Positions 2,344 to 64,000 are shown, numbered from the stretch's first letter. The stretch is DNA of 64,000 nucleotides from Candidatus Dormiibacterota bacterium (GCA_963823765.1 CAWGML010000002.1:92337-156336); one strand, 5' to 3'. A program made the numbers and translations. The notes: generated by a model from the letters alone, not told the origin.

Positions 2344-2734
2344 GCGCGCGAAGGTGCCCCTGCGCGGGCAAAGCCTGGGCGGCGAGGCGGGTCGCCGGCC
2401 GGCTGGCACAGGAGGGCGATCACGACAGCACTCGTAGTGATCCGAGCCGCTGAGGGCCGGCACGCGGATCGAGAGACTCCATCACACGGCCAGGACAGGG
2501 GGAGTGTCGGTGGCGGCCATGGCCGCGACGGTACGGGCGGGCACCTTACGCTCTGATGACCCCCGAGGCCATTGCGGCAGGGTGTCGATCAGGGTGACCA
2601 AGCGCTGGGTTCCCCGGGAGAGCAGTAACAGGGACGTCACGGGCCATCAGAGGCCATGGGGCGCCTGCACGCTGTTGGTCACAGAGCTCACCCCAGCGTA
2701 ATTCGCGGCGGAAGATGACTCCTATGGTCCGGCT

Positions 2735-13423: not shown

Positions 13424-13464
13424 CCGCTTGACAGACCTCCGCCGGGAGACCGCACCATCGCCCC

Positions 13465-41470: not shown

Positions 41471-41494
41471 TCGTCCGCAGACATCCAAGAGGGG

Positions 41495-42457
41495 TTGAAC
41501 ATGAAGATTCTGATCGCGGGCACAGCCCGCTGCGGCAGCACGTGGGCTGCCAACGTCCTCGGCCGCGCCGACCAGAGCCGCTCGGTATATGAGCCCGATG
41601 GCCCCCGTTCGGACATTCTCGGCGCCATGGTCGCCACCCGCCTCGGCGAATACCCGGTGCTGCAGCCGGGCCAGCGCAGCGGCTGGTATCGCCTGGTGTG
41701 GGACCTCGCCTTCAGCGGCGGCTGGCCGTGGGACAACGTGGAGACCGCGCGCGCCGCCGGACGCCGCATGGTGCGCATCCCGCCGCTGATGCGCGACTAC
41801 CTCGTCGCGGGGTTGGCGGAGGGGACGCGTCGCGTGCGCCGCGGGCCGAGGAACGTGCTCGTCAAGTCGGTGAACTCCGCGTTCTCACTCGAGTGGATCG
41901 CCCAGCGCTACCAGCCCCGGGTCCTGGTGTTGCGGCGCAACCCGCTCAACGTCGTCTCCAGCTGGGTGGTGCTCAACATGTGGTCCGACAGGCCGATCGG
42001 GCAACACCCGGCCGTGCGCGAGCGATACCTCGCCCCCATCGGCGTGACCGCACCGGACAATGGCGCGTCCGCGGTGCGCATCGCCGCCTTCAACGTGGGC
42101 CTGCTCACGCGGGCTCTCCGGCAGGCCGCGGCCGAGCATCCCGAATGGATCGTCGCCTCCCACGACCAGCTCTGCATCGACCCGGAGACGGGCTTCCGTG
42201 ACCTGACCGCGCGGCTGGGGCTGCGCTGGACACCGGCGATGACCGACTACCTGCGCAAGTCGGACGACCCGTCGTTCACCGTGCATGGCGGCACCCCCAA
42301 GTTTCATCCCAACGCGGTGAGCTCCACCACCACGGACAGCCGCCGCGACCAGCAGGCCAGCCAGTTCAAGCGGCGGCTCACGCCGGCGCAGGCCGACGAG
42401 GCCCGCGAGGTGCTCGCGTCCTTCGACCTCGCGGAGTGGGGCGTGCCGGCGGCCTGA
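41495..42457 (+). CDS. PAPS-dependent sulfotransferase, Stf0-like, paralog 3
   Basis: KILIAGTARCGSTWAANVLG PSB loop. Collinear with paralogs 1 and 2 (YEPDGPRSD...; VLVLRRNPLNVVSSW; SHDQLCIDPETGFRDLTARLGLRWTPAMTDYL). Confidence 0.8.
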   Translation: MNMKILIAGTARCGSTWAANVLGRADQSRSVYEPDGPRSDILGAMVATRLGEYPVLQPGQRSGWYRLVWDLAFSGGWPWDNVETARAAGRRMVRIPPLMRDYLVAGLAEGTRRVRRGPRNVLVKSVNSAFSLEWIAQRYQPRVLVLRRNPLNVVSSWVVLNMWSDRPIGQHPAVRERYLAPIGVTAPDNGASAVRIAAFNVGLLTRALRQAAAEHPEWIVASHDQLCIDPETGFRDLTARLGLRWTPAMTDYLRKSDDPSFTVHGGTPKFHPNAVSSTTTDSRRDQQASQFKRRLTPAQADEAREVLASFDLAEWGVPAA

Positions 42458-43411
42458 TCAGCAGCCCGGGCCGTCCACCGTCTGGCCCGAGATGGTGATG
42501 CCGTCGGACGGCTGCTTGACGATGCCGTGACCGCCGTGGCTGACCACGTTGGCGACGGTGATGTGGTGGGACGGCCCGGTGATGTACCACGGTTGCGCGC
42601 AGGTCTTGGCGAACGGTCCGGGAGTGAAGCTCTCGCCATCGAGCGTGACGTTCTCGTCCTCGAACAGGGCCAGGATGCCGCCGTGGATGGTGATGTTGGA
42701 GAGCGTGGCGTGGTTCTGGCAGTCGACGTCGACCGACGCGAAGCCGCCCGTGCCGGTGGTGGTCATGTCGATGTTGCGCAGCGTGGTGCCGCCGCGCTGG
42801 TAGCTGAAGCACGGCGACGGCCCGACGAAGCGCATCCCGAAGCCGCTGCCGGCCTCGCCGGTGACGTTGGTCACCGTGGTGTTGTTGGCGTTGCTGAAGA
42901 GCACTCCCGGCTTGGGCTGCTTGAGCACGGGCCCGCCGGGGTTGAAGGTGGCGGTGTCGAGGTTCATGTCGGACACGGTCACGTTGTCGGCGCTGATGTC
43001 GAAGATGTTGATGGCACCGTGCTGCACCAGGAAGGTCGAGGCGCTTCCCGCGCCGCGCACCGCGACGGGGCCGCCGACGACGATGTGGTTGCTCAGCACG
43101 CAGGTACCGGCGCCGATGGTCACCGTGCCACCACGGTCGACGGCGGCCTGCAGCGCGATGGTGACATCCGTGCTCCCGTCACAGCTGACGCTGCTGGCCA
43201 CGGTCGACGTGGGGGAGGGAGGGAACGTCGACAGCGTCGGCGCCGGTGACGCGGAGCCGCTGCGCGTCGGCATCGAGCTCGGGCTGCCGCAGCTCGCCAG
43301 CATGGCGAGTGCCAGGAGTGCCGGCCCCGTGCAGGCGAGCCGCCGCCTCAGCTGGCCCGTCCCCGGGAGCCGCGCGACCAGCGGCGCAGGTCGCTGCGCC
43401 GCCGGCCGCAC
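42458..43411 (-). CDS. Secreted/lipoprotein right-handed beta-helix protein
   Basis: Lipoprotein-type signal (RRRLACTGPALLALAMLASCGS, lipobox LASC), then beta-helix repeats rich in short N.T/G.V...I rungs. The start is uncertain (GTG near 43411). The listed ORF N-terminus is low-complexity. Confidence 0.5.
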   Translation of the reverse strand: MRPAAQRPAPLVARLPGTGQLRRRLACTGPALLALAMLASCGSPSSMPTRSGSASPAPTLSTFPPSPTSTVASSVSCDGSTDVTIALQAAVDRGGTVTIGAGTCVLSNHIVVGGPVAVRGAGSASTFLVQHGAINIFDISADNVTVSDMNLDTATFNPGGPVLKQPKPGVLFSNANNTTVTNVTGEAGSGFGMRFVGPSPCFSYQRGGTTLRNIDMTTTGTGGFASVDVDCQNHATLSNITIHGGILALFEDENVTLDGESFTPGPFAKTCAQPWYITGPSHHITVANVVSHGGHGIVKQPSDGITISGQTVDGPGC

Positions 43412-43425: not shown

Positions 43426-44959
43426 CTACGGCGAGAACTGGATGGCGTCGGTGGCGCCACTCTGCGGACGGTGCAGCACGCTGGTGTAGGTGGAGTTCTG
43501 CACGGTGCCCTGCGCGATGATCTTGGGCGAGATGGTGATCCCGTCCAGGGAGCTGTTCTCGACGAGCAGGTTCTGCACGTCGCCGATCAGCAGCCTGAAG
43601 GTCGGGCCGCCGGTCATCTGCTCGTTGTCGATGGTGATGTCCTGGTTGACGCGCGCGTTGTCGGGGGCGGTCTTGATCTGGCCGCCCTCGCCAGAGGTGG
43701 TGAAGTTGGTGATGGTGAGGTTGTCGCACGGGGTGGACATCACGAAGCCGGCGGTGGCGCCGTGCGTGCCCGGCGTGTAGTTGTAGTTGGTGACGGTGGT
43801 GTTGGTGTCGGCATAGAGCGTGATCCGCGAGCCCGTGTGCTGCACGTTGCTGATCGAGGCGTTGTCCTGGAACGAGAAGCTCCAACCGTCGCCGGTGAAC
43901 CAGTCGTTGAGGATCACGTCGTTGACGACGTTGCCCTCGCTGTGCAGGCCGTTACCCGGGTGCGCGCTCGGCGGGCCGGGGTAGTAGATGCCGAAGGTGT
44001 TGGTGCCGCTGAGCACGCGGATGCGCTGCACCAGCGTGTAGTTGCCACCCACGCCGAGCCCGTGGCCGGCGTCGAAGGTCTGGGTGTCCAGCGTGAGGTC
44101 CTGGACCGTGGCGTGGTCACTGCGGACGCTGAGCAGGTCGTTCCTGCCGGTGCTCGTCTCCACCAGCGTGGTGCTGTCGCGGCCCGCGCCCGCGAACACG
44201 ATCGGCACGCTGCCGCCGATCTGGATGCTCGCCGGGGTGGCCGTGGCGAAGGTGTACGTGCCCGCGGGCACCCACACGATGCTGCCCGCCCCGCCGGCCT
44301 GGGCGGCGGCAATGGCGGACTGGAAGTTGCTGGCGTTGTCACCGGTGTCGTCGCCGTGGGCACCGTACGCGGTGACGTCGAAGATCGCGCTGAAGCGGGT
44401 CGAGCTGGTGCCCTTGCCCCACTTGTTGGAGACGACGATGGGCCCTGACTTCACCCCGGCGGGCACGGTGGCGGTGAGCTGGCTGTAGGAGTTGACCGTG
44501 AAGCCGGGGGCGGCAATGCCGCCGAAGCTCACCTGGGTGGCGCCGGTGAAGGCGCTGCCGTTGATGGTCACCGAGTTCGCCCGGCCTGCCGCTGGCCGGC
44601 GTGAAGCCGGTGACCGACGGTGTCACCTTGAAGAACTTGTTCTTGCTGGTGACGTTGCCCCCCGGGGTGTGCACGCTGATCGTCCCCCTCGAGGCGCCGT
44701 TCGGCACGGTGGCATCGATCTCGGTGTCGGAGACCACCGAGTACGTCGACGAGACCAAGCCCACGAGCACCGCGGTGGCGCCGGTGAACCCGGTGCCGCT
44801 GATCACCACGGCGGTGCCCACCGGTCCGCTGGTGGGCGAGAAGCCGGAGATGGTTGGACCAGCCGCCGCCACCGAGAGGGTCGAGCCGAACAGAGAGCCG
44901 CCCGCGACCGCGAGGACGGCACAGACCGTGACGAGCCGGCGCCAACGCAACTGATCCAC
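43426..44959 (-). CDS. Secreted tandem-IPT/TIG + right-handed beta-helix (Pectate_lyase_3-like) protein, paralog 1 (apparent frameshift near 44570)
   Basis: Signal peptide, then TIG repeats (PTISGFSPTSGPVGTAVVISGTGFTGATAV...; VTINGSAFTGATQVSFGG...). The beta-helix N-cap VTAYGAHGDDTGDNASNFQSAIAAAQAGGAGSIVWVPAGTYTF is diagnostic of the Pectate_lyase_3/GH28/GH55-like family. The protein continues from frame 44339..44959 into 43426..44571. Confidence 0.7.
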
Positions 44960-45167: not shown

Positions 45168-46565
45168 TCAGCCCCAGGCGTTCAGCGTCCCGTTGTCGGC
45201 GCCGAAGAACAGCATGTTGTCGGCAATGGCGGCAGACGAGTGGATCTTGCCGCCGACGTTGGTCGAGAAGACCAGCGCCCCGTCGCTGAGCCTGTAGCCG
45301 CGCTCACCGCCGTTGAGGTCTCCGACGAAGGCGAGCTGGTCGCCCGCGGCGCCGGAGATGGCCGGCGACGTGAGAATGGTGGCGGTGGCGGTGGCCGACC
45401 GCCAGGTCACGGCGCCCGTCGTGGCATTGAAGTCGTAGACGTAGCCCGCGTAACCCACCACGAGGTCGTTGCCCGTCAGCGCCGCGACTGAGACCGAGTT
45501 GGTCTTCATACCGGCGTCGAGGGACATGTCGAAGTTCCAGATCTGGGCGCCGGTCGCCAGGTCGAGCGCGTACTCGATCTTGTCCTTGCCGTCGATGTAC
45601 ACGACACCGTCCGCGAAGCCGTTGACGCCCGGTGCGCTGATGGTCGGACCCGCGCCGACGTCCTGGTCGCCACCGTTCTGGATGGTCTGGAAGCGCCACA
45701 TCTGGGCGCCGGTGGTGGCGTTGAGCGCGTACACGGAGTTGTCAGGGTTGCTGCTGCCGAAGACCAGCATCCAGGTGCCTGCGCTGTTCTGGACGAGGCC
45801 CGGCTCCGACCACGAGCCCGAGTTGAACCCGTGGGTGCCCTTGTTGGCGAAGCCGTTGAACACCCACTTGAGCTGGCAGCTGCCCGCTGTGTTGCCGATG
45901 CCGGTGACCGCCCACTCGTGCCCGGCGTTGTGCTTCTCGTTCTGACCCTCGTCGCCGAAGAAGACCACCGGGCCGGTGCCGTCGACGCGGCCGACGACCG
46001 GCGAGGCCTCGATCCGTCCGGGGACGGTCTGGGGCGACACGATCGGCAGGGAGAAGGAGCACTGGAAGGCGCCGGTGGTGGCGTTCAGCGCGTAGAGGAT
46101 CCCGTCGGTGCCGGCGAAGTAGATCGTGTTGCCGTCGATCGCGGGCGACGACACGAAGGCGCCGGGCGTGTACTGCACGCTCCAGATGGTGGCGCCGGTG
46201 GCCGCGTCGAATGCATGCACCTGGCCGAGGACGCTGACGTCGTACACGACGGTCTTCTGCAACGTGGCGTTGAAGACCACCGCCGGTGATGCGTACACGG
46301 ACGCCTTGCCCTGGCTGCCGCCGCCCACCAGCTGCGACCACTTCTTGGTCAGGCCTGAGGCCGTCGAGGCGCCGATGGCGGTGTCCGGCGACACGCCGCT
46401 GTGCGTCGCGTTGCCGTGGAACATCGTCCAGTCATCCCCGGTCGTCGCGCGCGCGCTGCTCGGCACCACCGCCATGGCGATCGAGGCGGCCACGGCCACA
46501 CCCAACAGCAGTGGGCGATGGACGCGCCCGGTCGCCCACGTCAAGGCACGGTTGTTGACGATCAT
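45168..46565 (-). CDS. Secreted PQQ-like beta-propeller repeat protein
   Basis: Signal peptide followed by repeated (V/I)YALNATTGA..W / AFDAATGATIWS motifs. About 8 repeats of about 40 aa, typical of PQQ/BamB-like propellers. Confidence 0.7.
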   Translation of the reverse strand: MIVNNRALTWATGRVHRPLLLGVAVAASIAMAVVPSSARATTGDDWTMFHGNATHSGVSPDTAIGASTASGLTKKWSQLVGGGSQGKASVYASPAVVFNATLQKTVVYDVSVLGQVHAFDAATGATIWSVQYTPGAFVSSPAIDGNTIYFAGTDGILYALNATTGAFQCSFSLPIVSPQTVPGRIEASPVVGRVDGTGPVVFFGDEGQNEKHNAGHEWAVTGIGNTAGSCQLKWVFNGFANKGTHGFNSGSWSEPGLVQNSAGTWMLVFGSSNPDNSVYALNATTGAQMWRFQTIQNGGDQDVGAGPTISAPGVNGFADGVVYIDGKDKIEYALDLATGAQIWNFDMSLDAGMKTNSVSVAALTGNDLVVGYAGYVYDFNATTGAVTWRSATATATILTSPAISGAAGDQLAFVGDLNGGERGYRLSDGALVFSTNVGGKIHSSAAIADNMLFFGADNGTLNAWG

Positions 46566-46883: not shown

Positions 46884-48173
46884 ATGAACTTCCACCCCCG
46901 TCGACTGACCCTCGTCACCCTCGTCTCCGGCGCCGTGCTCCTGTCCGGCAGCACCTCCAGCGCCGTGCTGACGTCGTCACGCTCGGGTGTGGCGACCGCG
47001 CCACGACACCTGGCGGTGTCGGACAGCCTGACCACAGCGCCAACGAGCGGAGCCACACCCGACGCCACCGCAGCCCCGACCGCGGTCCCGTCAACTCAGG
47101 GCCCCGGGCTGGCGGTCAACCCCTCCACGCAGTCCCCGGCCCAGCTGCGTGCCCAGCAGGCCACATGGCGGCCCCAGCTCAACGTCACCGAGCTCTCGGT
47201 CAGCGCGGCTCACCTCAACCTCGTGCTCTTCGGGGAGCCGACAATCGCGGCCGACGGTTCGATGGGCACCAACATCGGCGGCACCTGGCACTCGGTCGGG
47301 GCACAGCGAGACGTCACCAACCACTTCCTCGGCGCGCTGGCCACGGACAACGCGGCGGACCTCAGCCGGGCCATGGCCGCGCTCGAGTACACCTTCGCGC
47401 ACCAGAACGCCGACGGCTCGTGGCCTCAGGTGGACATCCCCGGCTCGCCCTACTCGCCCGGCGGGGGCTTCATGAGCACCATCTTCTTCTACGCCTCGCT
47501 GGGACGCTCGCTGGGCCTGGCCGCGGACTCCCACTGGTTCCAGACCAGCGCTGCAACCGCCGCTCTGCGCGCCCGTCTGGCGGCCCTCGCTCCGGGGATG
47601 GAGCGCGGCCTCGCCTGGATGCGCGGCCCCGTCAACAGCCAGCAGATGCAGAACATGGGCAAGGGCTCGCAGAGAGACAGCAACCGCGCGGCCGCCGGGG
47701 CCGAGGGGTTCCTCCTGGTGGGCCAGTGGCTCCACAGTGCCGCGGACGTGGCGACCGGCCAGCGCCTGCTGCTCCAGGTCGAGAGCAACCAGCTGCCCGA
47801 CGGCACCATCCTGGAGTCGGGGGGCTTCGACGCCGGCTACCAGACGGTGTCGCTGAACCACCTGTACGACATCTGGTTCCACCTCACCGGCTCCCTCGCG
47901 GGTCTGCGCGGTGGTGTCTGGAACGAGCTGGCCAAGGGCACGGCCAAGGAGAACAGCGTCGTGCTGCCCTCAGGCGAGATCAACTTCGACGGCAGCACCC
48001 GCGTCGACTGCGGTGGGGAGACCTTCCACGGCCAGCCCAAGCAGGGCAGCGGGCAGGACCTCTCCCGGGTGGAGGTGTACACCGCGGGCGTCACCGCGAA
48101 CGGCTCGCTGCTCGCCATGGCGGCGCGGATCATCAACTACTACAACACCCACACCCACTCGCACTGCGTCTAG
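46884..48173 (+). CDS. Secreted hypothetical protein (paralog of 55053..56234)
   Basis: Signal peptide with a Thr/Pro-rich linker. Conserved blocks are shared with 55053..56234: AAHLNLVLF/AAHLAMVIH, GSMGTNIGGTWHSVGAQR/GSIGTNHSGWHSLGFQR, ALEYTFAHQNADGSW/ALEYSYQHQNPDGSF, FGAEGFLL.G.WL, LPDGTILE.GGFD.GYQ.VSL.NL, CGGE.F.G..KQG.G. Function unknown. Confidence 0.7.
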   Translation: MNFHPRRLTLVTLVSGAVLLSGSTSSAVLTSSRSGVATAPRHLAVSDSLTTAPTSGATPDATAAPTAVPSTQGPGLAVNPSTQSPAQLRAQQATWRPQLNVTELSVSAAHLNLVLFGEPTIAADGSMGTNIGGTWHSVGAQRDVTNHFLGALATDNAADLSRAMAALEYTFAHQNADGSWPQVDIPGSPYSPGGGFMSTIFFYASLGRSLGLAADSHWFQTSAATAALRARLAALAPGMERGLAWMRGPVNSQQMQNMGKGSQRDSNRAAAGAEGFLLVGQWLHSAADVATGQRLLLQVESNQLPDGTILESGGFDAGYQTVSLNHLYDIWFHLTGSLAGLRGGVWNELAKGTAKENSVVLPSGEINFDGSTRVDCGGETFHGQPKQGSGQDLSRVEVYTAGVTANGSLLAMAARIINYYNTHTHSHCV

Positions 48174-48227: not shown

Positions 48228-49776
48228 CTAGGAGAAGGTGATCGCGTCGGTGGCGCCGCGCTGCGGGCGGTGCACCACCTTGGTGTAGGTCGTCGATGTC
48301 ACCGTGCCCTGGGCGATGTTCTTCGGCGAGATGACGATCTGGTCGAGCGAGCTGTTCTCCACGAGCAGGTTCTGGACGTCGCCGATGAGCAGCCGGAACG
48401 TGCCGCCTCCGGTCATCCGCTCGCCGTTGATGGTGATGCTCTGGTTGACCCGCGCCATGTCAGGCGCGTTGTTGATCTGGCCGCCCTGGCCGGAGCTCAC
48501 GAAGTTGGTGATCGTGATGTGGTCGCAGGGGGTTGAGATCACCCAGCCGGCCGTGCCTCCGAAGCTGCCCGGCGTGTACGTGTAGTTGGTCACGGTCACG
48601 AAGCTGTCGGCGTACAGCGAGATGCGCGAGCCGGTGTGCTGCACGTTGCTGATCGAGCCGTTCTTCTGGAAGGAGAAGCTGAACCCGTCACTCTTGAGGT
48701 GGTCGTTGAGGATGACGTCGTTGATGACGTTGTTGGTGTCGTACTGGCCATCGCCGGGATGGGCCCCGGGCGGGCCGGGGTAGTAGATGCCGAATGTCCT
48801 GGTGCCCGAGATCACCCGGACGCGCTGCACCGTGGTGTTGCTGCCGCCGTCGCCGATGCCGTGGCCGCCGGAGTGGGTCTGGGTGTCGAAGGTGAGGTCC
48901 TCCACCGTCACGCCGTCGCAGTGGTTGCTGAAGAGGTCCTTCTTCAGTGTCAGCTCGACCAGAGCTGGTGCTGTCGCGGCCGGCGCCCGCGAACGTGATC
49001 GGCACAGTGCCACCGATCTGGATGCTGGCCGGGGCGGCGGTGGAGAAGGTGTAGGTGCCGGCGGGCACGTACACGATCCCGCCTCCCGCACCCTGCGCGG
49101 CGGCGATGGCCGACTTGAACGCGGCCGCATTGTCACCGCTGCCGTCGCCGTGCGCACCGTATGCGGTCACCGCGAAGACCTGTCCCACCGTGAAGCTCGA
49201 CGAGCTGGCTCCCTTGCCGCCCTTGGTCGACACGACGATCGGCCCGCTGCTCGCTCCCGCGGGCACGGTGGTCGTGATCTTGCTGTAGGAGTTCACCGTG
49301 AAGGGCGCGGAGACGCCGTTGAAGGTGACCTTGAGCACCTTGACGAAGGCGCTCCCCGTGAGGGTGACGCTGGTCCCGGCCGGGCCGAACTTCGGTGTGT
49401 AGTCCGTGACCGTCGGGGACACCTTGAACTTCTTGCTGCTCGCGGCGTTGCCGCCAGGTGCGCTCACCACGATCAACGCCGTGGTGGCACCGAAAGGCAC
49501 TGTGGCGGTGATCTGGGTGTTGGAGTTGACCGTGTAGCTGGCGTGCACGTTGTGGAAGGTGACCGCCGTGGCCCCGGTGAACCCGCTTCCTGTGATCGTG
49601 ACCGAGGTACCCACCGGTCCCGACCCCGGCGAGAAGCCGGTGATGGTGGGACCCGACGCGAAGCCGCGCACGCTCGACGCGAGCAGCGAGCCGCTCACCA
49701 CCACCAGCACGGCGGCGGCTGTCACCAACCGCCGCCACTGACTCCGTTGCCTGTTCAAGCTCCCATCCCTCCTCAT
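48228..49776 (-). CDS. Secreted tandem-IPT/TIG + beta-helix protein, paralog 2 (apparent frameshift near 48950)
   Basis: Signal peptide, then two or three TIG domains (PTITGFSPGSGPVGTSVTITGSGFTGATAVTF; PTVTDYTPKFGPAGTSVTLTGSAF). The beta-helix N-cap is AVTAYGAHGDGSGDNAAAFKSAIAAAQGAGGGIVYVPAGTYTF. It continues in frame 48228..49157 (LTFDTQTHSGGHGIGDGG...), which is collinear with paralog 3. Confidence 0.7.
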
Positions 49777-49788: not shown

Positions 49789-51321
49789 CTAGGGCGAGAA
49801 GGTGATGGCATCGGTCGCGCCACTCTGGGGACGGTGCATCACGCTCGTGTACGTGGAGTTCTGCACTGTGCCCTGCGCGATGTTCCTCGGCGAGATGATG
49901 ATCTCGTCCAAGGTGCTGTTGTCGACGAGCAGGTTCTGCACGTCCCCGATCAGCAGCCTGAAGCTAGGGCCGCCGGTCATCACCTCGTTCCTGATGGTGA
50001 TGTTCTGGTTGACGCGAGCCGGGGTCGGCGCCGTCTTGATCTGGCCGCCCTCGCCGGCGGTGGTGAAGTTGGTGATGGTGACGTTGACGCAGGGCGTCGA
50101 CATCACGAAGCCGGCGGTGGCCCCGTGGGTGCCGGGCGTGTAGTTGTAGTTGGTGATGGTGGTGTTGGTGTCCGCGTAGATGGTGATCCGCGAGCCGGTG
50201 TGCTGCACGTTGCTGATCGAGGCGTTGTCCTGGAAGGAGAAGCTCCAGCCGTCACCGGTGAACTCGTCGTTGAGGATGAGGTCGTTGACGACGTTGCCCT
50301 CGCTGTGCAGGCCGTTGCCGGGGTGCGCGCCGGGCGGGCCTGAGTAGTAGATGCCGAAGGTGTGGGTGCCGGAGATCACCCGGATGCGCTGCACCAGCGT
50401 GTGGTTGCCACCGATGCCGAGGCCGTGGCCTCCGTTGAACGTCTGGGTGTCGAGAGTGAGGTCCTGCACGGTGACGCCGTCGGTGCGGACGCTGAGCAGG
50501 TCCTTCCTGCCGCTGGTCGTCTCGACCAGCGTGGTGTTGTCGCGGCCCGCCCCGGCGAACACGATCGGCACGGTGCCATTGATCTGGATGCTCGCGGGTG
50601 TGGCGTTGGCGAAGTAGTAGGTGCCGGACGGCACGAAGACGGTGCTGCCCGCCCCGGCGGCCTCGGCGTCTGCGATGGCCGACTGGAAGTTGGCCGTGTT
50701 GTCACCGGTGCTGTCGCCGTGGGCGCCGTAGGCGGTGACGTCGAACTCCTCGCTGAAGTTGGTCGAGCTGGTGCCCGGCCCCCACTTCGTGGTCACTGTG
50801 ATCGGCCCCGTGGTGTCGCCCGCCGGGACGGTGGCGGTGATCTGGCTGTAGGAGTCCACCGTGAAGGTGGTCGTCGGCACGCCGTTGAAGGCGACCTGGG
50901 TGGCGCCCGTGAACGCGCTCCCGCTGATGGTCACCGTGTCCCCCGCCTTGCCGGTCCCGGGGGTGAAGCCGGTGACCGCCGGGGTCACCTTGAAGAACTT
51001 GTGCGTGCTGGTGACGTTGCCGCCAGGGGTGTGGATGCTGATCGTGCCCCTCGAAGCACCGAACGGGACGGTGGCGTCGATCTCGGTGTCCGACGCCACG
51101 GTGAAGCTCGCCGCCACCAGGTGGAACTTGACGCTGGTCGCGCCGGTGAAGCCGGTCCCGGTGATGGTCACGGGGGTGCCTACCGGTCCGCTGGTGGGGG
51201 AGAAGCCGGAGATGGTCGGCCCTGACGCGGCCACCGACAGTGTCGAGCCGAACAGGGAGCCACCAGCCACGGCGACGATTGCGCAGGTGGTGACAAGCCG
51301 ACGCCAATGGATGTGATGCAA
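49789..51321 (-). CDS. Secreted tandem-IPT/TIG + beta-helix protein, paralog 3 (intact)
   Basis: 510-aa intact ORF with a signal peptide, two TIG domains and a beta-helix. It is about 85-90% identical in long stretches to paralog 1 (DVTAYGAHGDSTGDNTANFQSAIADAEAAGAGSTVFVPSGTYYF). It lies 12 nt upstream of paralog 2. Confidence 0.85.
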   Translation of the reverse strand: MHHIHWRRLVTTCAIVAVAGGSLFGSTLSVAASGPTISGFSPTSGPVGTPVTITGTGFTGATSVKFHLVAASFTVASDTEIDATVPFGASRGTISIHTPGGNVTSTHKFFKVTPAVTGFTPGTGKAGDTVTISGSAFTGATQVAFNGVPTTTFTVDSYSQITATVPAGDTTGPITVTTKWGPGTSSTNFSEEFDVTAYGAHGDSTGDNTANFQSAIADAEAAGAGSTVFVPSGTYYFANATPASIQINGTVPIVFAGAGRDNTTLVETTSGRKDLLSVRTDGVTVQDLTLDTQTFNGGHGLGIGGNHTLVQRIRVISGTHTFGIYYSGPPGAHPGNGLHSEGNVVNDLILNDEFTGDGWSFSFQDNASISNVQHTGSRITIYADTNTTITNYNYTPGTHGATAGFVMSTPCVNVTITNFTTAGEGGQIKTAPTPARVNQNITIRNEVMTGGPSFRLLIGDVQNLLVDNSTLDEIIISPRNIAQGTVQNSTYTSVMHRPQSGATDAITFSP

Positions 51322-51627
51322 AGCGGATCCCCCTCTCCTGTCCCGGGCGCTCAGCCGCGCCCACCTCGGTTGCCTTCCTCATGGAGTGCCGAACCGGCCT
51401 GCGCGCGCCAGTTCTCCCCCCGTAGGCGTGAGTTCTAGAGAACTGTCCTCCCAAAGTCCAGCCGCACCCCAACGTGCTGGCATCTCTTTACAGTTCTTTC
51501 CCACTGCACCAGTGACAGTCGGCGTGCGCACTCGACCGTCCCGGTTACCGTGTACAACTGCACCTCCACGAACGCGCCGGTGTAGGATCCGCCGTGGAGA
51601 GGGGTAAAGAAAGGGGGGGATCATTGG

Positions 51628-53504
51628 TGGCTCACGAGGCCGCGACGCATCGACGCGCGCTCGAGCCGGACCGGTCACGGACCAGGCGGCGACCTCGATG
51701 GCGTCGGCCGGTGCTCAGCGGTGCGCTGTTCCTCCTCGTGGTCGGCTCCGTGCAGGCGGCGACATCAGCGAAGACCTCGATCCAGGCCACAGCCGCGACC
51801 TCCCCGATCAAGCACGTCGTCGTGCTGATGGAGGAGAACCACTCGTTCGACAACTACTTCGGCACCTACCCCGGCGCCAACGGCATCCCTGCAGGCGCCT
51901 GCATCCCCGACCCGGCGGCGGGGCACTGCATCGCGCCGTACCACAACCCGGCCGGCTTCGTCGACGATCTGCCGCACGTCTACCCCGCTGTCATCGACGA
52001 CCTCGATGGGGGCAAGATGGACGGGTTCGTGAAGGTGCTGCAGCACGCCTGCCAGTGTTCGCGGACGGACGCCGCCGGGTACTCCGACGCGACTGACATC
52101 CCCAACTTCTGGCAGTACGCGCAGAACTACACACTGATGGACAACCTCTTCGAGCAGGTGCCGTCGTGGAGCTTCCCGTCGCACGTCGCCATGGTTTCCG
52201 AGTTCACCGGTTCATGCACCTCGCCGACAGACCCGCTGACCTGCACGAGCTCGCCGCGGATGGGCTTCCCCGGCTGGGACACGTGGCCCGCGCCCAGCAA
52301 GACACTGCCCTGGACGGACATGACGTACATCCTGCACAAGCAGGGGATCAGCTGGGGCTACTTCAACGCGGACCAGACCGAGCCCGTCTGCTTCTCCAAC
52401 GCGTGCACGATGACCCGCACCAGCGCGGGAACGCCGATCTGGCAGAACCCCCTCCCGTGGTTCACGGATGTCCAGCAGGATGGACAGCTGGCCAACATCT
52501 CCACGCAGAGCACGTTCTTCAGCGATGTCGCCTCCGACAACCTGCCGTCAGTGTCCTGGCTGATTCCCAACCGGCTGCAGAGCGGGCATCCCGGCACGGG
52601 GACAAACCCCGGCAGCGAGCAGTTCGTCGTCCATGCCATCAACGCAATCGAGTCGAGCCCCGAGTGGTCGAGCACGGCGATCATCCTGGCGTGGGACGAC
52701 TTCGGCGGTGAGTACGACCACGTGGTGCCGCCCAACCTGAGCAGCCTTGCCTACGGCGCCCGCATTCCCGGGATCCTGATCAGCCCCTACGCCAAGAAGG
52801 GCTACATCGACCACCAGACGCTGTCGATCGATTCCTTCAACAGGTTCATCGAGGACACCTTCCTCGGCGGTCAGCGCCTCGACCCGAGCAACGACGGCCG
52901 CCCCGATTCGCGGCCATCGGTGCGCGAGAACGACCCCATCCTGGGCGACCTGAGCCAGGATCTCGACTTCACCCAGCCGCCGTCGCGACCGATGCTGTTA
53001 CCGGAGGTCTCGGTGCCCGACAAGCTCGTACCGGGGCACCAGGTGACCGTGACCGGCACCAACTTCAGGCCGGGCCACCCGGTCGACATCAGGTTCAACT
53101 GTGGAGCGCCGAGCTGCACGGGGGCAATCGACGAGGGGACGGTGACGGCGACCGGCAACGGGTCGTTCTCCACCACCTTCACCGCTCCGACCACCATGCC
53201 GGCCGGCTACTACTTCGTCAGCGGCGCGGGAGCCGACCCACTGACCTGGTTCGGCGTACACTCCGACCCGGCTCACCAACTCCAAGGGACAGGCGCCGCC
53301 GCTGCCGGACAACCCAGCCGTACCGGACGACTGAGCCGGCCACCGGGAAGCCGGTGGCGTGCCCTCTCCCCGGTGGGTCGCCAGTGTCAGGTCGGGTCGT
53401 TCAGGTCCGCCAGGTCCACCTGGCGCATCGCCGGCGTCACCGCCGTCTGGCTCAACTTCACCGGCCTGCGCGGTGCTTGCGTGAAGTTGAAGCTGCCGGT
53501 GTAG
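51628..53504 (+). CDS. Phosphoesterase family protein (PF04185; phospholipase C / AcpA acid phosphatase family), type A paralog 1
   Basis: The N-terminal family signature [28 protein letters not shown] comes after a basic signal region (RRRPRWRRPVLSGALFLLV). The start is GTG/TTG near 51625-51628, preceded by AAGGGGGGG. The C-terminal extra domain has FRPGHPVDIRFNCGAPSCTG. The last about 40 aa overlap the convergent gene and may reflect a missed stop. Confidence 0.75.
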
Positions 53505-54935
53505 TTGTAGGCGCTGGCGTCCCAGGTGGAGGTCGTGATCGGCGGCAGGCCGAACGCCCACTCGGTGAAGGCGAGCACGGAGGCGAACTGCGCCGGGTTC
53601 GAGTCGGTGTGTCCGGCGATCGTGTACGGGCTGACGATGATCATGGGCACCCGGATCCCCTGGCCCGTGGGGGGCGCGACGTGGTCGTAGAAGCAGCCGC
53701 AATCGTCCCAGCTGATGAAGATCGCCGTCGATGACCACTCGGGGCTGTTCTCGATCGCGGTCACCGTGGAGCTGATCCAGTTGTCGCCGACGGTCATCGA
53801 GTCGCCGTTGTGCTGCGAGTCCGTCTGGGTGGGCGTGACCAGCGAGAAGTTCGGCAGCTGGCCGGCCGCGGCGTCGGTGCTGAACTGGCTGTTGGAGGGA
53901 TGCTGAGAGACTGGCTTGTTCAGGCACTCGGCAAAGGTGGGACAGGTCGCCCAGCCGTAGCCGGTGGTGTTGCCGCTGCTCTCGCCCTGGCCACCGTTGC
54001 TGCCGCCGGGAGGTCCGCCGTACATCTTCCAGGTGAGGTTGGCGGCGTCGAGGCTGTCCATGATCGTGGGCACGTAGGGCACATCCGAGGGGCGGTAGGC
54101 ACCGCCATTGGTGATCACCGTCCCGGTCGGCGAGGTGGTGCCGTTGAGGGCCGGGTCCGGGAATGCAGGCCGGCTCCGTGGCCTGGTGCCCGTTGCTGGG
54201 GTTCTTCCAGGTGGTGTCCCGGCCGGAGTCGCAGCCCCACCCGTTGCCGAGGAGGCCGAGGGTGCCGGGATGCGGGGTGCCGCCGCCGGTGAAGCCGTCC
54301 ATCGTCCCCGCCACCGCTCCGAGGTGCATGCCCCACGAGGCCAGCGGCCCATCGCTGAACGTGCGGTCAGAGACGGCGAAGTCGTTGGCGAGCGTGAGGA
54401 CGTTCTTGATCGCCGTCTGGCCGGGCGTGTACTGGGTGTAGCACTTGTAGTTGTCCTTGGCGGTGCAGCCCTGGAGCGTCGAGTACCCGTCCATGAGCCC
54501 GCCGTCGATGGCATTGGTCTGGCCCTGGCCCGAGTGGATCACCTGGACGATCTTGTCCTTGGCCTTGGTCAGAGGGATCGAACCGACTCCTTTGACGTTC
54601 CCGGTGGTGGCGCCGTCACAGCGGGCGGTCTGCACACACCAGGCGCCGAGCACGTTGTCGAATGAGTGGTTCTCCTGGAGGATGAACACCACGTGCTGGA
54701 TCGGCGATTGGAACCCGGAGCTGCGCGCGGGGGTGGCGGGGGAGTTGGCCACGGCTGCCCCGGCCACGCCGACGGCGACGACCCCGATCACGGCGCGGCG
54801 CCGCGCCCGGCTCCCCGAGGTGCGCCGCTGGCGACGCGGAAACGCGGATTTCAAGTTCAAGTTGCCCCCTTCGAGTGTCCTCACCCCGGTCTGGTCAGAC
54901 GAGACCGGCGCCTTCCCTCCGACACAGGATGCCAC
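53387..54935 (-). CDS. Phosphoesterase family protein (PF04185), type B paralog 1 (apparent frameshift near 54150)
   Basis: Signal peptide, then IQHVVFILQENHSFDNVLGAWCVQTARCDG. The C-terminal part continues in frame 53387..54514 (PNFSLVTPTQTDSQHNGDSMTVGDNW...[16 protein letters not shown]...IIVSPY). It is collinear with 58921..60352. Confidence 0.7.
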
Positions 54936-55052
54936 AAACGCCAGTACAGAGCAATAACGTCAAGCGCATCAGCCCGACTCTCACCGCCCTCTCAGGCGAG
55001 AGGACCGGGCCGCGCTCGTATCCTGCGGTGGTGACCCTCATGGCGCTCTCGC

Positions 55053-56234
55053 ATGCTGCGGACTAGACGGAGCCGGTGGCTCCTCGCCGCCGCCCTCCTC
55101 GCCGTCTTCGTGCTGTCCGGGGGCGTCGGCGCGCTGGTGGCGCGCGAGACGGCACCGCCGACCGCGTCGCGCTCCTCATCCTCGTCGTCGAACGGCGCCG
55201 CGGGCGCCCCGCTGGCCACCGTGCCGGCGCCCGCTGTGAACGGCGCCTCCGAGCTCAGCATCGCCGCGGCGCACCTCGCCATGGTCATCCACAGCACGTT
55301 CAAGATCAATCCAGACGGGTCGATCGGCACCAACCACAGCGGCTGGCACAGCCTGGGTTTCCAGCGACCCTTCGGCAACGACGCGGAGATGGCCCTGATC
55401 AAGCAGGATCCCCAGGCCCTGTCGCTGGCGGTCACGGCCCTCGAGTACAGCTACCAGCACCAGAACCCCGATGGGTCGTTCCAGGTCACCCAGGTGCCCG
55501 GCGCCGCATACCAGCTGAACACCGACCCGGTGGTCGGCGTGGTCTTCTGGTACGGCGACCTCGGTCATGTGCTGCAGCTGCTGACCGACTTGCAGTGGTA
55601 CCAGGCCAGCCCGGAGACCGCGGCGATCCGGGCGCGCGTCGACGCGCTGCGCTCCAAGATCGCACTGACGTTGCGGTGGCTGTCCGCGCCAACGCAGCTG
55701 AAGGTCGTGCAGAACACCGGCAACCAGGACACCAACCGCGCCACCTTCGGCGCCGAGGGATTCCTCCTCACCGGCGAGTGGCTCAACGACCCCGCAGTCA
55801 TCGCCATCGGCACCGGGCTGCTGCAGAAGGCCGAGGCCAACCTGCGGCCCGACGGCACCATCCTCGAGAAGGGTGGCTTCGACAGTGGCTACCAGTCGGT
55901 GTCGCTCGACAACCTGCTCCACATCTACATGCACCTCAACGGCACCCTGGCGTCGCTCAAGCCCGCGCTCTGGACCATGATCAACAAGGGGATGTCCCGC
56001 GAGAAGCAGGCGATCGCGCCGACCGGCCAGCTGTCGCACGCCAACAACTCGCGCACCTACTGTGGCGGGGAATCCTTCCGCGGCAAGCAGAAGCAGGGCG
56101 GCGGTAACGCGGTGGTGCGCGACCTCGTGTTCTACTCCGGCCTCACCAACGATGCATCGCTGGTCAGCACCGCCAACTCGGTGGTGAAGTTCTACGCCAG
56201 CAACCCCCACAACCTCTGCGCACTTCCGCAATGA
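55053..56234 (+). CDS. Secreted hypothetical protein (paralog of 46884..48173)
   Basis: Signal peptide MLRTRRSRWLLAAALLAVFVLSGGVGA and a Ser-rich linker, with conserved blocks as listed for 46884..48173. Confidence 0.7.
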   Translation: MLRTRRSRWLLAAALLAVFVLSGGVGALVARETAPPTASRSSSSSSNGAAGAPLATVPAPAVNGASELSIAAAHLAMVIHSTFKINPDGSIGTNHSGWHSLGFQRPFGNDAEMALIKQDPQALSLAVTALEYSYQHQNPDGSFQVTQVPGAAYQLNTDPVVGVVFWYGDLGHVLQLLTDLQWYQASPETAAIRARVDALRSKIALTLRWLSAPTQLKVVQNTGNQDTNRATFGAEGFLLTGEWLNDPAVIAIGTGLLQKAEANLRPDGTILEKGGFDSGYQSVSLDNLLHIYMHLNGTLASLKPALWTMINKGMSREKQAIAPTGQLSHANNSRTYCGGESFRGKQKQGGGNAVVRDLVFYSGLTNDASLVSTANSVVKFYASNPHNLCALPQ

Positions 56235-56250
56235 CGGACGCCCACCCCGC

Positions 56251-57490
56251 GTGAGCGCCCCGCCGCCGGCGCCACCACCGCCGACGGCCCCCGAGCGTCG
56301 CTGGCCCGTCTACATCGTGGCCATGGCGCTGGTGGTGATCGCGGCCCTGGTCGTGGTGCTCGTCGTCCATCCCTTCGGATCGACGCGGCCGGCCGGTCCC
56401 GGCAGCGGGTTGGCGGCGGTGACCACCCCCGTCTCGGCCTTCCCCTCGATGAACCCGCCGGCGCCACCCTCGGACGCGTTCAACGTGGTGCGCTACGGCG
56501 CCGACCCTTCGGGCCACCACGACTCGACCGTGGCCATCCGCGCCGCCATCACCAGGGCGTCAGCCTCGCCGGGGAAGACGGTGTACTTCCCCGCGGGGTC
56601 GTACCTGCTCGACCTCAACGACGGGGCCCAGACCGACTTCCAGCTCACCGGGGCCAACGCCCCCAACATCCTCGGGGCGGGGAGGGACTCCACGCTGGTC
56701 GTCGAACGCGTCGGCACCACCGCGTACCCCGGCCTCGCCAAGCCGAAGACGGTCTTCAGGCTCACCAACGTCACCGCCACCGTCTTCGCCGGCCTGACCG
56801 TCGACGCGCAGAGGTACAACGCCGGCGACGCGCTCGACGATTCCGGCGACAACACCACCATCGAGGCCTCCCGCTTCCTCGGGGCGACCAACCGCAACAC
56901 GTTCACGCTCCGCGTCATCGCCGTCTGCAACCAGTCACCGACGCACCATCTCTACGGCATTCACCGCAGCAACAACACCGTCAGGGACGTGATCCTCAGC
57001 GGCCGCGGCACGGGCGGCAACGACGACCTCGACTTCTCCTGCCAGTGGAACGGCACCATCTCGGACATCACGGACGTCGGGCTGGGGAACCGCCCTCTAC
57101 ATCGACAAGGACGTCACCATCACCAACTTCAAGTACACACCGGGAACGGTGGAGAAGAGTCCCAAGGGGTGGTTCATCACCGACTCCTCCGGCATCCACA
57201 TCACCAACTTCACGACCTCCGGCGCGGGCGGGATCATCAGGAACCCCAACTACCAGACCACCAACGTCACCATCGACCACGAGGTCATGACCAAGCCCGG
57301 GTTCTTCTTGGCCATCGGCGACGCCGCCAACGTGACGATCACGAACAGCACGCTCACCGGCCTGCGCATCGAGCCGTACAAGGCAACGACAGCGCTGACG
57401 GTGACGTCGTCGTCCGTGGCCACGACCGTGTGCGCGCCGCAGGCGAGCGCGGTGGTCTCCGGGCTGGCCGGGGTGCGCTGTGGTGGCTGA
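56251..57490 (+). CDS. Membrane-anchored right-handed beta-helix protein (Pectate_lyase_3-like), apparent frameshift near 57095
   Basis: Pro-rich N-terminus plus a TM ([20 protein letters not shown]). The beta-helix N-cap is [42 protein letters not shown]. It continues in frame 57149..57490 ([31 protein letters not shown]...). Confidence 0.65.
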
Positions 57491-58907
57491 GCGGGGGCAC
57501 CGTGGCGCCGGCCCGCTCCGGCACTGGCGGCTGCTGGCGCTGCCGCTGGGGCTCGCGGTCGTTCTGCTCGGCTGCGGCCCTGCGACCAGTGTCGTGACAG
57601 CGCTGCAGAAGATCAAGCACGTCATCGTGATCATGCAGGAGAACCGCTCGTTCGACAGCTACTTCGGCACCTATCCCGGCGCCGACGGCCTGCCGGTGAG
57701 CAACGGTCAATTCACCTCCTGCGTCCCCGACCCGCGAGCGGGGACGTGCCAGCGCCCCTACCACGACCCGTCGATCGTGAACGGGGGAGGGCAGCACAAC
57801 AAGAAGGACGCCGTGGCTGCGATCGACGGCGGCAAGATGGATGGCTTCATCACGGTTGCGGAGACGCGGTCTCGAGGCTGCGGCCCATCTCCCGACGCCA
57901 CCGCGTCGGCGGCCTGCGACCCGGCCACGCCACCCGACGTCATGGGGTACCACGACGCGCGCGAGATCCCCAACTACTGGGCCTACGCGAGGAACTTCGT
58001 CCTCGCGGACCACATGTTCCAATCCGACGCGTCGTGGAGCAGGCCCTCGCACCTGTACCTGGTCTCGGGGTGGTCCGCCCGCTGCAAGAACCCGCAGGAT
58101 GCCTCGACATGCAAGAACGACGACTCGTCCGGCGGGTTCACCAACCTGGGCACCGACACCACGACCACGTCCAGGTACGGGTGGACGGACCTGACCTACC
58201 TGATGCACAAGGACAGCGTCAGCTGGAAGTACTTCGTCGAGACCGGCACGCAGCCCGATTGCAGTGACGAGGCCTGCACCGCGCTGCCGCAGAATGCCAA
58301 GACGCCGAGCATCTGGAACCCGCTCCCATACTTCACGGATGTCTCGCAGGACGGCCAGCTGGGCAACGTGACAAGCCTCGCCAACTTCTACACCGCGGCC
58401 GCCAAGGGGACGCTGCCGGCCGTCAGCTGGGTCGCTCCCTCACAGTCGGAGAGCGAGCACGCACCCGCCACGCTGGCGGCCGGACAGGCGTACACCGCCA
58501 GCCTCATCAACGCGGTGATGAAGGGCCCGGACTGGAGCAGCACCGCGATCTTCCTGACCTGGGACGACTGGGGCGGCTTCTACGACCATGTCGCTCCGCC
58601 CACGGTGGACCAGAACGGCTACGGGCTGCGCGTGCCCTTCATCGTGATCAGCCCCTATGCGCGCAGGGGCTACATCGACCACCAGGTGCTCAGCTTCGAT
58701 GCCTTCAACAAGTTCATCGAGGATGACTTCCTCGGCGGTCAGCGGCTCGACCCCAAGACCGACGGACGGCCCGACCCGCGACCGGACGTCCGCGAGAACA
58801 GTCCGCTCCTCGGCGACCTGGCGCGCGACTTCGACTTCACCCAGCCCCCGTTACAGCCGTTGATACTGCCGCTCACACCCAGCCCCGGTCCCGCGTCGAC
58901 TCCCTAG
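57480..58907 (+). CDS. Phosphoesterase family protein (PF04185), type A paralog 2
   Basis: [28 protein letters not shown] follows a lipoprotein-like signal ([16 protein letters not shown]). The C-terminal blocks [16 protein letters not shown] and [37 protein letters not shown] are shared with 51628..53504. Confidence 0.8.
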
Positions 58908-58920
58908 CGCCGGCCCCGGC

Positions 58921-60352
58921 TCAGGTGGGGTCCTCGGGGTCGCCCTGGGACTGCAGCATCGCCGGCGTGACCGGAGTGGTGGTCATCCGCACCGGGGCCC
59001 GCGGCGCGTGCGTGAAGTCGAAGGCCTTCCAGTAGTTGTAGGCGCCGGAATCCCAGGTGGTTCCCGGTGTGATCGGCGGCAGCCCGAACGCGGTCTCGGT
59101 GAAGGCGAGCACCGAGGCGAAGCTGGCCGTGGCGTGGTCCGTGCCACCAGCACGCGCGTACGGGCTGACGATGATCATCGGCACCCTGATGCCCAGCCCC
59201 GCCGGGTGGCGCCACGTGGTCGTAGAAGCAGCCGCAGTCGTCCCACGTGATGAAGATGGCCGTCGACGCCCAGTCGGGACCGTTCTCCACCGCGCTGACC
59301 ACCGAGCCGAGCCAGTTGTCGCCGACGGTCATGGAGTCGCCGTTGTGTTGCGACGCCGTCTGGGTCGGCGTCACCACCGAGAAGTTGGGCAGGTTCCCGG
59401 ACGACGCGTCCGCCGTGAACTGGCTGTTGTCGACCATCTTCGACGGGGATCCATACAGGCACTCGGCGAACGTGGGGCAGATCGCCCATCCGTACCCGGT
59501 GCCGTTGCCGGAGTTGTCGCCCTGGTGGCCGCGGGTGGCGGCGCCGGGCGGGCCGCCGTAGAGCTTCCAGGAGAGTCCCGCGGCGTCGAGGCTGTCCATG
59601 ATCGTCGGGACGTAGGGCACCGGCGTCGACCGGTACGCTCCCCCATGCGGGAGGTCCGACCACCGGTCCGGGACGCAGGCCGGGACGCTGCTCTGCACCC
59701 CCGTCTGCGGGTCCTGCCAGGTGGTGTCGCGTCCCGAGTCACAGCCCCATCCGCTGCTCAGCACGCCCGCGGTACCCGGGATCGGTGTGCCGCTGTCGAC
59801 GAAGCCGTCCTGGGTCGCGGCCACCGCCCCCACGTGCATCCCCCATGAGGACACCGGACCGTCCTCGAACGTCCGATCCGACACGGTGAAGTTGGTGGCG
59901 AGCGCGAGCACGTTGGTGATGGAGGACTCCGCAGGTGTGTACTGCGTGTAGCACTTGTAGGCGTCCGCTTGGCCGCAATGAATGATGCGGGCGAAACCGT
60001 CCATCGCCCCCCCGTCGATGGCGGCAGTCTGTCCCTGCGCCGAGTGAGCGACCTGCACGACCTTGTCCTTGGCCGTGGTCAACGGGATCGACCCCACTCC
60101 TTTGACCACGCCCGTGGTGGCGCCGTCGCACCGACCGGTCTGCACACACCACGCCCCCAGCACGTTGTCGAAGGAGTGGTTCTCCTGGATGACGTACACC
60201 ACGTGCTGAATCCGCGTGGTGAACCCGGGACGCTGCGCCGCCCCGGCGGGCGAGCCGCCGGCGGTCAGCAGCGCCACAGCCGCGGCGGCGCATGCCACCA
60301 CGCCACGTCGAACCGCTCTGCGCGCCGAAGCGCTGTTCCTGCTGCCCCCCAC
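58921..60352 (-). CDS. Phosphoesterase family protein (PF04185), type B paralog 2 (apparent frameshift near 59180)
   Basis: Signal peptide, then IQHVVYVIQENHSFDNVLGAWCVQTGRCDG. The C-terminus continues in frame 58921..59184 (MIIVSPYARAGGTDHATASFASVLAFTE...). Confidence 0.7.

Positions 60353-60422: not shown

Positions 60423-64000
<3,578 letters not shown>

Follow-up and report, generated by a model that had tools for sequence, protein, structure and literature searches.

Described PF04185 Enzymes

The closest described relatives of the genes studied here belong to the Pfam phosphoesterase family PF04185. Four genes of this family lie between 51.6 and 60.4 kb of a 64,000-nt stretch of DNA (the whole stretch analysed, hereafter "the window") from Candidatus Dormiibacterota bacterium (assembly GCA_963823765.1, contig CAWGML010000002.1, positions 92337-156336), where they form two pairs, A1/B1 and A2/B2, each with one member of a sequence type A and one of a sequence type B. 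The best solved match to both types is AcpA of Francisella tularensis (2D1G), a single-domain protein of about 450-500 amino acids (aa) with a Ser nucleophile (Ser175), which has the ENxSFD, His and DD..YDHV motifs in common with them and on which the model of a B-type protein superposes at a template modelling (TM) score of about 0.64. The likeness has limits: no more than about 20-25% of residues are identical, 10 Cys residues are invariant in type B, which also has about 40 aa inserted after the nucleophile, A1 carries a further domain at its C-terminus, and the window proteins score far under the curated acid-phosphatase cut-off (100-137 vs. 363 bits).

Bacterial phospholipases C (PLCs) use a Thr nucleophile, and PlcH and PlcN of Pseudomonas aeruginosa are exported by the twin-arginine translocation (Tat) pathway. 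These two enzymes (9GYE, 9GY2) and PlcA/B/C and PlcD of Mycobacterium tuberculosis belong to the same Pfam family as the window proteins, and the mycobacterial plc genes are, in addition, clustered actinobacterial paralogs with variable copy number. They differ from the window proteins in being about 520-740 aa long with C-terminal DUF756-type domains, whereas the window proteins are devoid of these domains, have Ser as the nucleophile and, at 102-170 bits, fall short of the 580-bit cut-off for phosphocholine-specific PLCs (PC_PLC). The M. tuberculosis plcABC operon and plcD, whose copy number ranges from 0 to 4, are induced by phosphate starvation and support survival on phosphatidylcholine as the sole phosphorus source; phosphate starvation also induces P. 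aeruginosa PlcH/PlcN (PMC4658479).

Another actinobacterial member, the glycerophosphoethanolamine ethanolaminephosphodiesterase of Streptomyces sanglieri (8YK5), matches the window enzymes both in structure (E = 2e-19) and in sequence (E = 3e-23). It acts on a soluble phosphodiester, and the family thus comprises more than PLCs and monoesterases. In contrast to the window enzymes, to which it is about 21% identical, it is 666 aa long and has additional domains. Plant and fungal non-specific PLCs (NPC4, 8HAV/8HAW, and RePLC, 8K3G) have the phosphoesterase-domain fold in common with the window proteins, RePLC being the top Foldseek match of the B-type model (TM 0.65-0.68), but they are eukaryotic, have a Thr nucleophile (T158 in NPC4; PMC9837106) and depend on a C-terminal domain for activity on lipids. 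For these enzymes, a covalent mechanism in two steps has been described (PMC9837106). Literature searches on PF04185 and on structures 8K3G, 8YK5, 9GY2 and 9GYE yielded nothing on the type A and type B subfamilies.

Four PF04185 Genes of Two Sequence Types

Our preferred interpretation, to which we assign a probability of about 0.6, is that the window encodes four exported, competent PF04185 enzymes of two anciently separated subfamilies, that these are AcpA-type enzymes serving in phosphate scavenging, that the cluster arose piecemeal, and that the frameshifts seen in it are errors. The four genes are as follows:

51628-53334, plus strand: A1, type-A PF04185 phosphoesterase (212 bits against Pfam; ribosome-binding site (RBS) and GTG start codon at 51628)
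53387-54860, minus strand: B1, type-B Cys-rich PF04185 phosphoesterase (39 bits, from the unshifted N-terminal part only)
57480-58907, plus strand: A2, type-A PF04185 phosphoesterase, an intact open reading frame (ORF) (230 bits)
58921-60352, minus strand: B2, type-B PF04185 phosphoesterase (127 bits)

A preliminary description of this DNA, made from the sequence, had already placed four PF04185 genes of two sequence types here, in two convergent pairs. Searches with the Pfam Phosphoesterase hidden Markov model bear this out, since all four proteins exceed the gathering score of 23 bits; both motif strings by which the types had been told apart occur exactly in the alignment, and the mapped gene limits agree with the convergent arrangement A1(+)/B1(-) and A2(+)/B2(-). 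Of the gene limits given before, the start of B1 at 54935 has to be moved, the likelier start being a TTG codon with an RBS at 54860 or one further downstream. The stops of A2 (58907) and B2 (58921) are separated by 13 nt, and those of A1 (53334 once corrected) and B1 (53387) by ~50 nt. The raw ORFs at 51594-53504 and 52998-54935 overlap, but they do so because of single-base frameshifts only. With ~69% G+C and a very high G+C content at third codon positions (GC3), the window, which comes from an uncultured soil bacterium, contains many spurious ORFs.

The best solved sequence match of both types is AcpA (E = 8e-31 and 5e-32). In HMMER alignments its Ser175 corresponds to the Ser of the motif SWS(F/R)PSH in type A and of SSWGMH in type B, and the ENxSFD motif, the equivalent of His106, the S-x-H histidine and WDDxGxxYDHV are kept in A1, A2, B1 and B2; what these residues do in AcpA and NPC4 has been set out elsewhere (PMC9837106). 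The Thr nucleophile of the PC_PLC type is absent, Ser standing at the aligned position in all four proteins. The predicted nucleophile is thus AcpA-like rather than PLC-like.

An AlphaFold2 (AF2) model of the B2 ortholog P0121 (pLDDT 69, pTM 0.80) matched every solved PF04185 structure with E values of 1e-17 to 1e-19 and TM of about 0.6-0.68, among them fungal and plant non-specific PLCs, AcpA, PlcN/PlcH and the Streptomyces glycerophosphoethanolamine phosphodiesterase, while sulfatases were distant (TM about 0.3-0.4). Scores against curated subfamily models were low. A2 (170 bits), A1 (136 bits) and type B (102-104 bits) fall below the PC_PLC equivalog cut-off (NCBIfam TIGR03396, 580.25 bits), and all are below that of Burkholderia-type acid phosphatases (NCBIfam TIGR03397, 362.75 bits) with 100-137 bits. 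The proteins are therefore PF04185 members outside any characterised subfamily, and the family assignment is right at the superfamily level only.

N-terminal hydrophobic signals can be seen by eye in the alignment of all four proteins, that of A1 being of the Sec type. A2 (LLGC) has a lipobox, as do the type-A relatives P0001 and L088_A. A Pfam search for the TAT_signal family gave no match at E<=0.01; Arg-rich n-regions were noted by eye in B1, B2 and P0149. From these features we infer that all four enzymes are exported.

Type B is a coherent, uncharacterised Cys-rich subfamily. Its members have the motifs WDDCGCFYDHV and QENHSFDNVLG.WC in addition to the ten Cys and the insertion after the nucleophile mentioned above, and they come from uncultured Actinomycetota, Dormibacterota, Chloroflexota, Eremiobacterota and similar groups. 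About 2900 type-B relatives were retrieved in the first search, alongside >8000 of type A, which is a very abundant soil-bacterial clade. The C-terminal extension of A1, about 100 aa, looks Ig/TIG-like by eye. At least two more intact type-B paralogs, P0130 and P0149, which are 58-62% identical to B1/B2, lie outside the window on the same 1.72-Mb contig, which brings the PF04185 genes of this genome to six or more; both, like P0121, have precomputed PF04185 assignments. In themselves, the four genes add members to a very large and already recognised family in which clustered paralogs of variable copy number are known from M. tuberculosis plc. Type B, for its part, is without a characterised member and common in uncultured soil phyla relevant to organic-phosphorus cycling.

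The density of the genes and their pairing were compared with 78 loci of type B in other genomes, none of them from a cultured organism, and with 80 A2-like metagenome loci. As the preliminary description had supposed, four copies within 9 kb are unusual: at least three PF04185 genes occur at one surveyed locus only, that of a syntenic close relative (L005, a 187-kb contig from JGI sample 3300066018, 85-88% nt identity), and two occur at about 10. Type B genes are solitary or in B-B tandems, with an A-type gene within 10 kb at only about 3 of the 78 loci, and adjacent A and B genes were found at none of the 78 B and 80 A loci. It follows that the A/B pairing is specific to this lineage.

Predicted Function and the Adjacent Glycan Genes

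By analogy with AcpA, a metal-assisted Ser nucleophile would attack the substrate to give a phospho-enzyme intermediate that is then resolved by water, and phosphate or a phosphorylated head group would be released from extracellular phosphoesters. Extracellular phosphoester hydrolysis by such an AcpA-type Ser/metal mechanism is, judging from the conserved residues, the most likely activity of the four enzymes. Family precedent leads us to infer that they may scavenge phosphate from organic phosphoesters or phospholipids.

The genes are surrounded by others that could suggest a different role:

about 18-41 kb: glycan biosynthesis/export cluster, with GT87, GT2 and GT4 glycosyltransferases, a formyltransferase, a Ser/Thr kinase and HlyD-ABC-MacB
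41471-42457, plus strand: sulfotransferase, with which the glycan biosynthesis/export cluster ends
42461-43285, minus strand: distant beta-helix copy, with similarity to the H paralogs
43429-44950, minus strand: H0, beta-helix paralog, 77-81% identical to H1
45168-46565, minus strand: secreted protein with a pyrroloquinoline quinone (PQQ)-like beta-propeller (NCBIfam/Pfam-type matches; orthologs at loci L084/L088 of the distant relative ERZ1700618)
46884-48173, plus strand: U1, secreted member of a rare protein family, no Pfam match, paralog of U2
48231-49758, minus strand: H2, secreted protein with TIG and pectate-lyase-like beta-helix (PF01833/PF12708)
49789-51321, minus strand: H1, secreted protein with TIG and pectate-lyase-like beta-helix (PF01833/PF12708)
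55053-56234, plus strand: U2, secreted protein of the same rare family as U1, no Pfam match
56251-57490, plus strand: H3, distant beta-helix paralog (PF12708)
60423-62576, minus strand: 717-aa secreted protein (orthologs of 736 aa in L005, 75% identical, and 763 aa in L084, 60% identical)
62709-64000, running off the window, minus strand: bifunctional ATP-sulfurylase/adenosine 5'-phosphosulfate (APS) kinase, i.e., a 3'-phosphoadenosine 5'-phosphosulfate (PAPS) synthase (its L005 ortholog, PF14306/PF01747/PF01583, is 97% identical at the aa level)

That a sulfotransferase and a PAPS synthase flank the island, in company with the glycosyltransferases, the formyltransferase and HlyD-ABC-MacB, suggests a sulfated extracellular glycan. 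The A/B genes lie in an island of secreted enzymes (U toroids, TIG-beta-helix proteins, PQQ-like propellers and the 717-aa protein) that is plastic and specific to this lineage and that borders the cluster for biosynthesis of this putative sulfated glycan.

Several observations made at this locus and elsewhere weigh against generic phosphate scavenging. PHO boxes (GTTCAC N5 GTTCAC with <=2 mismatches) gave 3 matches vs. 4.35 expected, none of them near the genes, though this Streptomyces-type consensus may not apply here. The GTG start of A2 overlaps the stop of H3 by 11 nt, and U2, H3 and A2 look co-transcribed, likely as an operon with U2 as its first gene; a scan of 46.5-62.8 kb for sigma-70 promoters and intrinsic terminators returned matches at chance level only. 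On the other strand, B2 begins 70 nt after the co-directional 717-aa gene. The packing of U2-H3-A2 and the spacing of the 717-aa gene and B2 both hint at a role with the neighbouring glycan-active proteins. Finally, some type B genes elsewhere are associated with sulfatase or sulfotransferase genes.

One alternative, which we regard as possible but distinctly tentative, is that the enzymes are part of the adjacent glycan system, acting with the lyase-like U proteins, the beta-helix proteins and the propeller on a phosphorylated and/or sulfated envelope polysaccharide or exopolysaccharide, for example by cutting phosphodiester links or a lipid-phosphate anchor. Besides the tight U2-H3-A2 arrangement and the glycosyltransferase, export, sulfotransferase and PAPS synthase genes of the window, it is favoured by the nearest A2 homolog, P0002, whose gene adjoins a PF12708 gene, and by the surroundings of type B in other genomes. 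A sulfatase or sulfotransferase lies within 10 kb of type B at 12 of 78 loci, and these are its commonest immediate neighbours (8 of 133), both as raw counts. One locus from an Acidimicrobiaceae metagenome-assembled genome (L007, 5454-16237) repeats the combination of beta-helix, type B, GT2, HlyD, MacB and sulfotransferase genes, its sulfotransferase being 61.5% identical to that of the window, and at two others (L040, 6020-15467; L019, 6936-15458) type B is found amid sulfatases, sulfotransferases, PQQ propellers and Wzy_C. Such neighbours are, however, missing from about 85% of type B loci and from all 80 type A loci. Sulfatase, sulfotransferase, PQQ-propeller, beta-helix and glycan-export genes accompany type B in a minority of distant genomes (L007, L019, L040, L039, L027, L050 and L051), and all-vs-all clustering of the neighbours at the 78 type-B loci yielded no family common to >5 loci. 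A2, moreover, is dispensable in the closest relative, and U-H pairs occur without a PF04185 gene in L084 and L089. For the function that the preliminary description had suggested, turnover of phospholipid, phosphosugar or teichoic acid in connection with the glycan system, comparative data speak weakly, and for type B alone.

The association of type B with sulfatase and sulfotransferase genes is best treated as a lead. A bolder version of it, which we consider very improbable, holds that type B naturally acts not on phospholipids but on sulfated glycans outside the cell, at their ester decorations or lipid-phosphate linkages, that its partners are sulfatases, sulfotransferases, PQQ-like propellers and glycanases of the beta-helix or alpha/alpha-toroid kind, that it might even have sulfo-esterase or phosphosulfate activity, and that a gene set for the turnover of sulfated glycans recurs in uncultured soil Actinomycetota, the window being one example of it. 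In one of the loci mentioned above (L040, 8390-11269), a PQQ propeller and a PF04185 domain share one stop-to-stop ORF and may be fused.

Origin of the Two A/B Pairs

The preliminary description had taken the two pairs, each preceded by a secreted protein and beta-helix genes, for copies of one duplicated multi-gene module. A U gene and a beta-helix set do stand ahead of each pair, but their layouts differ, U1(+)-H2(-)-H1(-) as against U2(+)-H3(+), and two to three further beta-helix paralogs are found at 42.5-45 kb. In a dot-plot of 46.9-54.9 kb against 55.0-60.4 kb, the U, A and B genes are collinear at 68-76% nt identity in patches, whereas the H genes are inverted and the intergenic regions have no similarity. 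What stands of the earlier proposal is the U..A..B order; the inverted H genes, the placing of A1 and A2 in different subclades and the absence of A2 from L005 do not agree with it.

Identities between the copies are uneven: 46-50% aa for A1/A2, 65-71% aa (75-76% nt) for B1/B2 and 42% aa for U1/U2, compared with 27-31% aa between A and B. A2 is 75-80% identical to P0001/P0002 and 55-66% identical to hundreds of proteins of other organisms, yet only 46-50% identical to A1, which falls in a separate subclade with best relatives at 59-62%, according to these identities and to a neighbor-joining distance tree that carries no support values. The orthologs of U, A and B have diverged alike from L005 (88-92% identity), yet B1 and B2 are far closer to each other than are A1 and A2 or U1 and U2. 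Four-fold degenerate sites of the three paralog pairs are near saturation (0.54-0.58 identical vs. 0.40-0.42 by chance), from which it follows that no paralog pair is recent. A recent gene-conversion event involving B1 and B2 was likewise weighed and rejected, their nt identity being ~75% with no near-identical tracts and with four-fold sites near saturation.

A2 is exactly absent from L005, where the stops of H3 and B2 are 3 nt apart (GGC), as opposed to the 1.4 kb carrying A2 in the window; the difference is clean (57491-58917 of the window vs. position 11383 of L005). No flanking repeats were found at the junctions of this segment. In L005 the convergent stop codons make a perfect small palindrome, CCTGAG-G-CTCAGG. 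With its GTG codon lying within the conserved 3'-terminal part of H3, A2 looks more like a member of an old operon that was deleted in L005; the genes for IS21/Mu transposases that flank P0001 (L002-L004) count against this view. A metagenome scan yielded no closer outgroup that would bear on gain vs. loss of A2.

In the distant relative ERZ1700618 (L084/L088), a U2-like and a U1-like gene stand in direct tandem and a single B gene lies beside two TIG-beta-helix genes, with an A2-like gene 6 kb away and no A/B pair; in L089, a U-H pair is unaccompanied by PF04185 genes. At the 80 A2-like metagenome loci, no B, U or H gene was found near the A2-like gene.

Taken together, these comparisons make it most likely that separate events, all of them old, produced the two A/B pairs, and not a single recent segmental duplication. 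The paralogs B1/B2 and U1/U2 would be restricted to the lineage, A1 and A2 would derive from different deep A subclades, and A2 would have been gained or lost between close relatives. The cluster would then be an ordinary piecemeal accumulation of old paralogs whose genes look active.

The collinear U..A..B order is an argument on the other side, since it leaves room for an ancient module duplication followed by rearrangement. On that account, a U-H-A-B cassette would have been duplicated once as a segment, after which the copies would have diverged for long, H would have been inverted and, in the first copy, amplified in tandem, and the L005 lineage would have lost A2. In its favour, the splits between the paralogs of U, A and B are all older than the split from the L084/L088 organism, the three pairs show equal synonymous saturation, and the A2 start codon within conserved H3 sequence fits an old operon with a deletion in L005 better than a fresh insertion. 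We nevertheless think a cassette duplication unlikely: many foreign sequences fall between A1 and A2, B1 and B2 (about 68% identical) resemble each other much more than do A1/A2 or U1/U2 despite like ortholog divergence, the outgroup relative has U2 and U1 directly in tandem with one B only, and the H genes are oppositely oriented and only 31-40% identical.

Frameshifts as Probable Assembly Errors

GC3 phase plots and tblastn revealed changes of frame in B1, B2, H0, H2, H3, the C-terminal part of A1 and the gene for PAPS synthase; these seven genes have eight frameshift sites in total:

near 44575: H0, the eighth shift, without an ortholog for comparison
near 48963: H2, 1-nt insertion
near 53258: A1 C-terminus, 1-nt insertion, which masks the true stop
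near 54148-54157: B1, 1-nt insertion, which splits the ORF
near 57079: H3, 1-nt insertion
near 59197: B2, 1-nt insertion in a G run, which shifts the last ~95 codons
near 62980 and near 63876: PAPS synthase (CysNC), two 1-nt insertions

Base-level alignment with L005 showed that each of the seven shifts that could be mapped, in six genes, is a +1 insertion in the window, with no deletion among them. Several of the insertions lengthen short G or C runs, and comparison with L084 gave the same two shifts in the PAPS synthase. The orthologs compared in L005 are all intact, including those of A1 (540 aa, 89% identical), B1 (467 aa, 87-90% identical), H2 and H1 (509 and 510 aa) and H3 (394 aa); the B2 ortholog P0121 is likewise intact and 89% identical. 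When one base is removed from each, B1 (490 aa) and B2 (476 aa) both reach a shared ...DPT stop, and corrected A1 regains the tail of its ortholog, with the stop at 53334. GC3 and codon signal are undiminished downstream of each shift.

An all-insertion spectrum in genes under purifying selection argues for long-read assembly error rather than pseudogenisation, and the apparent frameshifts are, on these comparisons with relatives, probably assembly errors. If so, all four PF04185 genes are probably intact in the organism, and the annotation of this genome should be read with the apparent pseudogenes in mind as probable +1 insertion errors. That the cluster is instead decaying, with B1, B2, H2, H3, H0, the A1 tail and CysNC as true pseudogenes and only A2, H1, U1 and U2 functional, is very unlikely: the shifts do stand in the public NCBI/ENA assembly (1.72-Mb contig), where P0122 is the shifted B2 ORF verbatim, and several of them fall within about 20 kb, but those mapped are all single-base insertions, two lie in a PAPS-synthase gene with 97% protein identity to its ortholog, coding signal persists past each of them, orthologs are intact in two relatives, and a megabase-scale contig suggests a long-read metagenome assembly.

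The uniform +1 pattern suggests that assembly error in the source genome is systematic, and series of broken-looking ORFs upstream (e.g., at 17.3-20.1 kb and 21.5-24.2 kb) may share the same cause.

Secreted Proteins of the Island and Other Genes

The U family is rare, with 11 homologs in 5.8 billion proteins. The AF2 model of U2 is an alpha/alpha toroid (pLDDT 78.5, pTM 0.78) whose nearest solved structures, by weak Foldseek matches, are PL5 polysaccharide lyases (Smlt1473, E = 1e-4, TM 0.4-0.5). In relatives, U-family genes were located at 10001-12588 of L084 and at 287-1519 and 6179-8356 of L089. A PF12708 beta-helix gene is repeatedly found 3' of the U gene, and distant U homologs occur within glycosyltransferase clusters (L085-L087).

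Five secreted beta-helix paralogs, 28% to 81% identical to H1, lie within 15 kb, three of them with TIG-bearing H1-type N-termini, so expansion has gone further in the beta-helix family than among the PF04185 genes. Type B recurs with sulfation genes, as do the U family and the TIG-beta-helix proteins, and this offers an entry point to sulfated exopolymers of soil Actinomycetota.

Pfam and NCBIfam searches with the 717-aa protein gave no matches; one Asp-box-like motif, SADGGATW, was noted in it by eye. The L005 contig carries an inositol-monophosphatase/CysQ-like gene in addition to its PAPS synthase gene. Further upstream in the window lie unrelated genes, namely those for a diguanylate cyclase with tetratricopeptide repeat and GGDEF domains (2702-4378), a nonribosomal peptide synthetase fragment with condensation and adenylation domains (6138-8438) and an HD-GYP-like/LuxR regulator (13432-15063).

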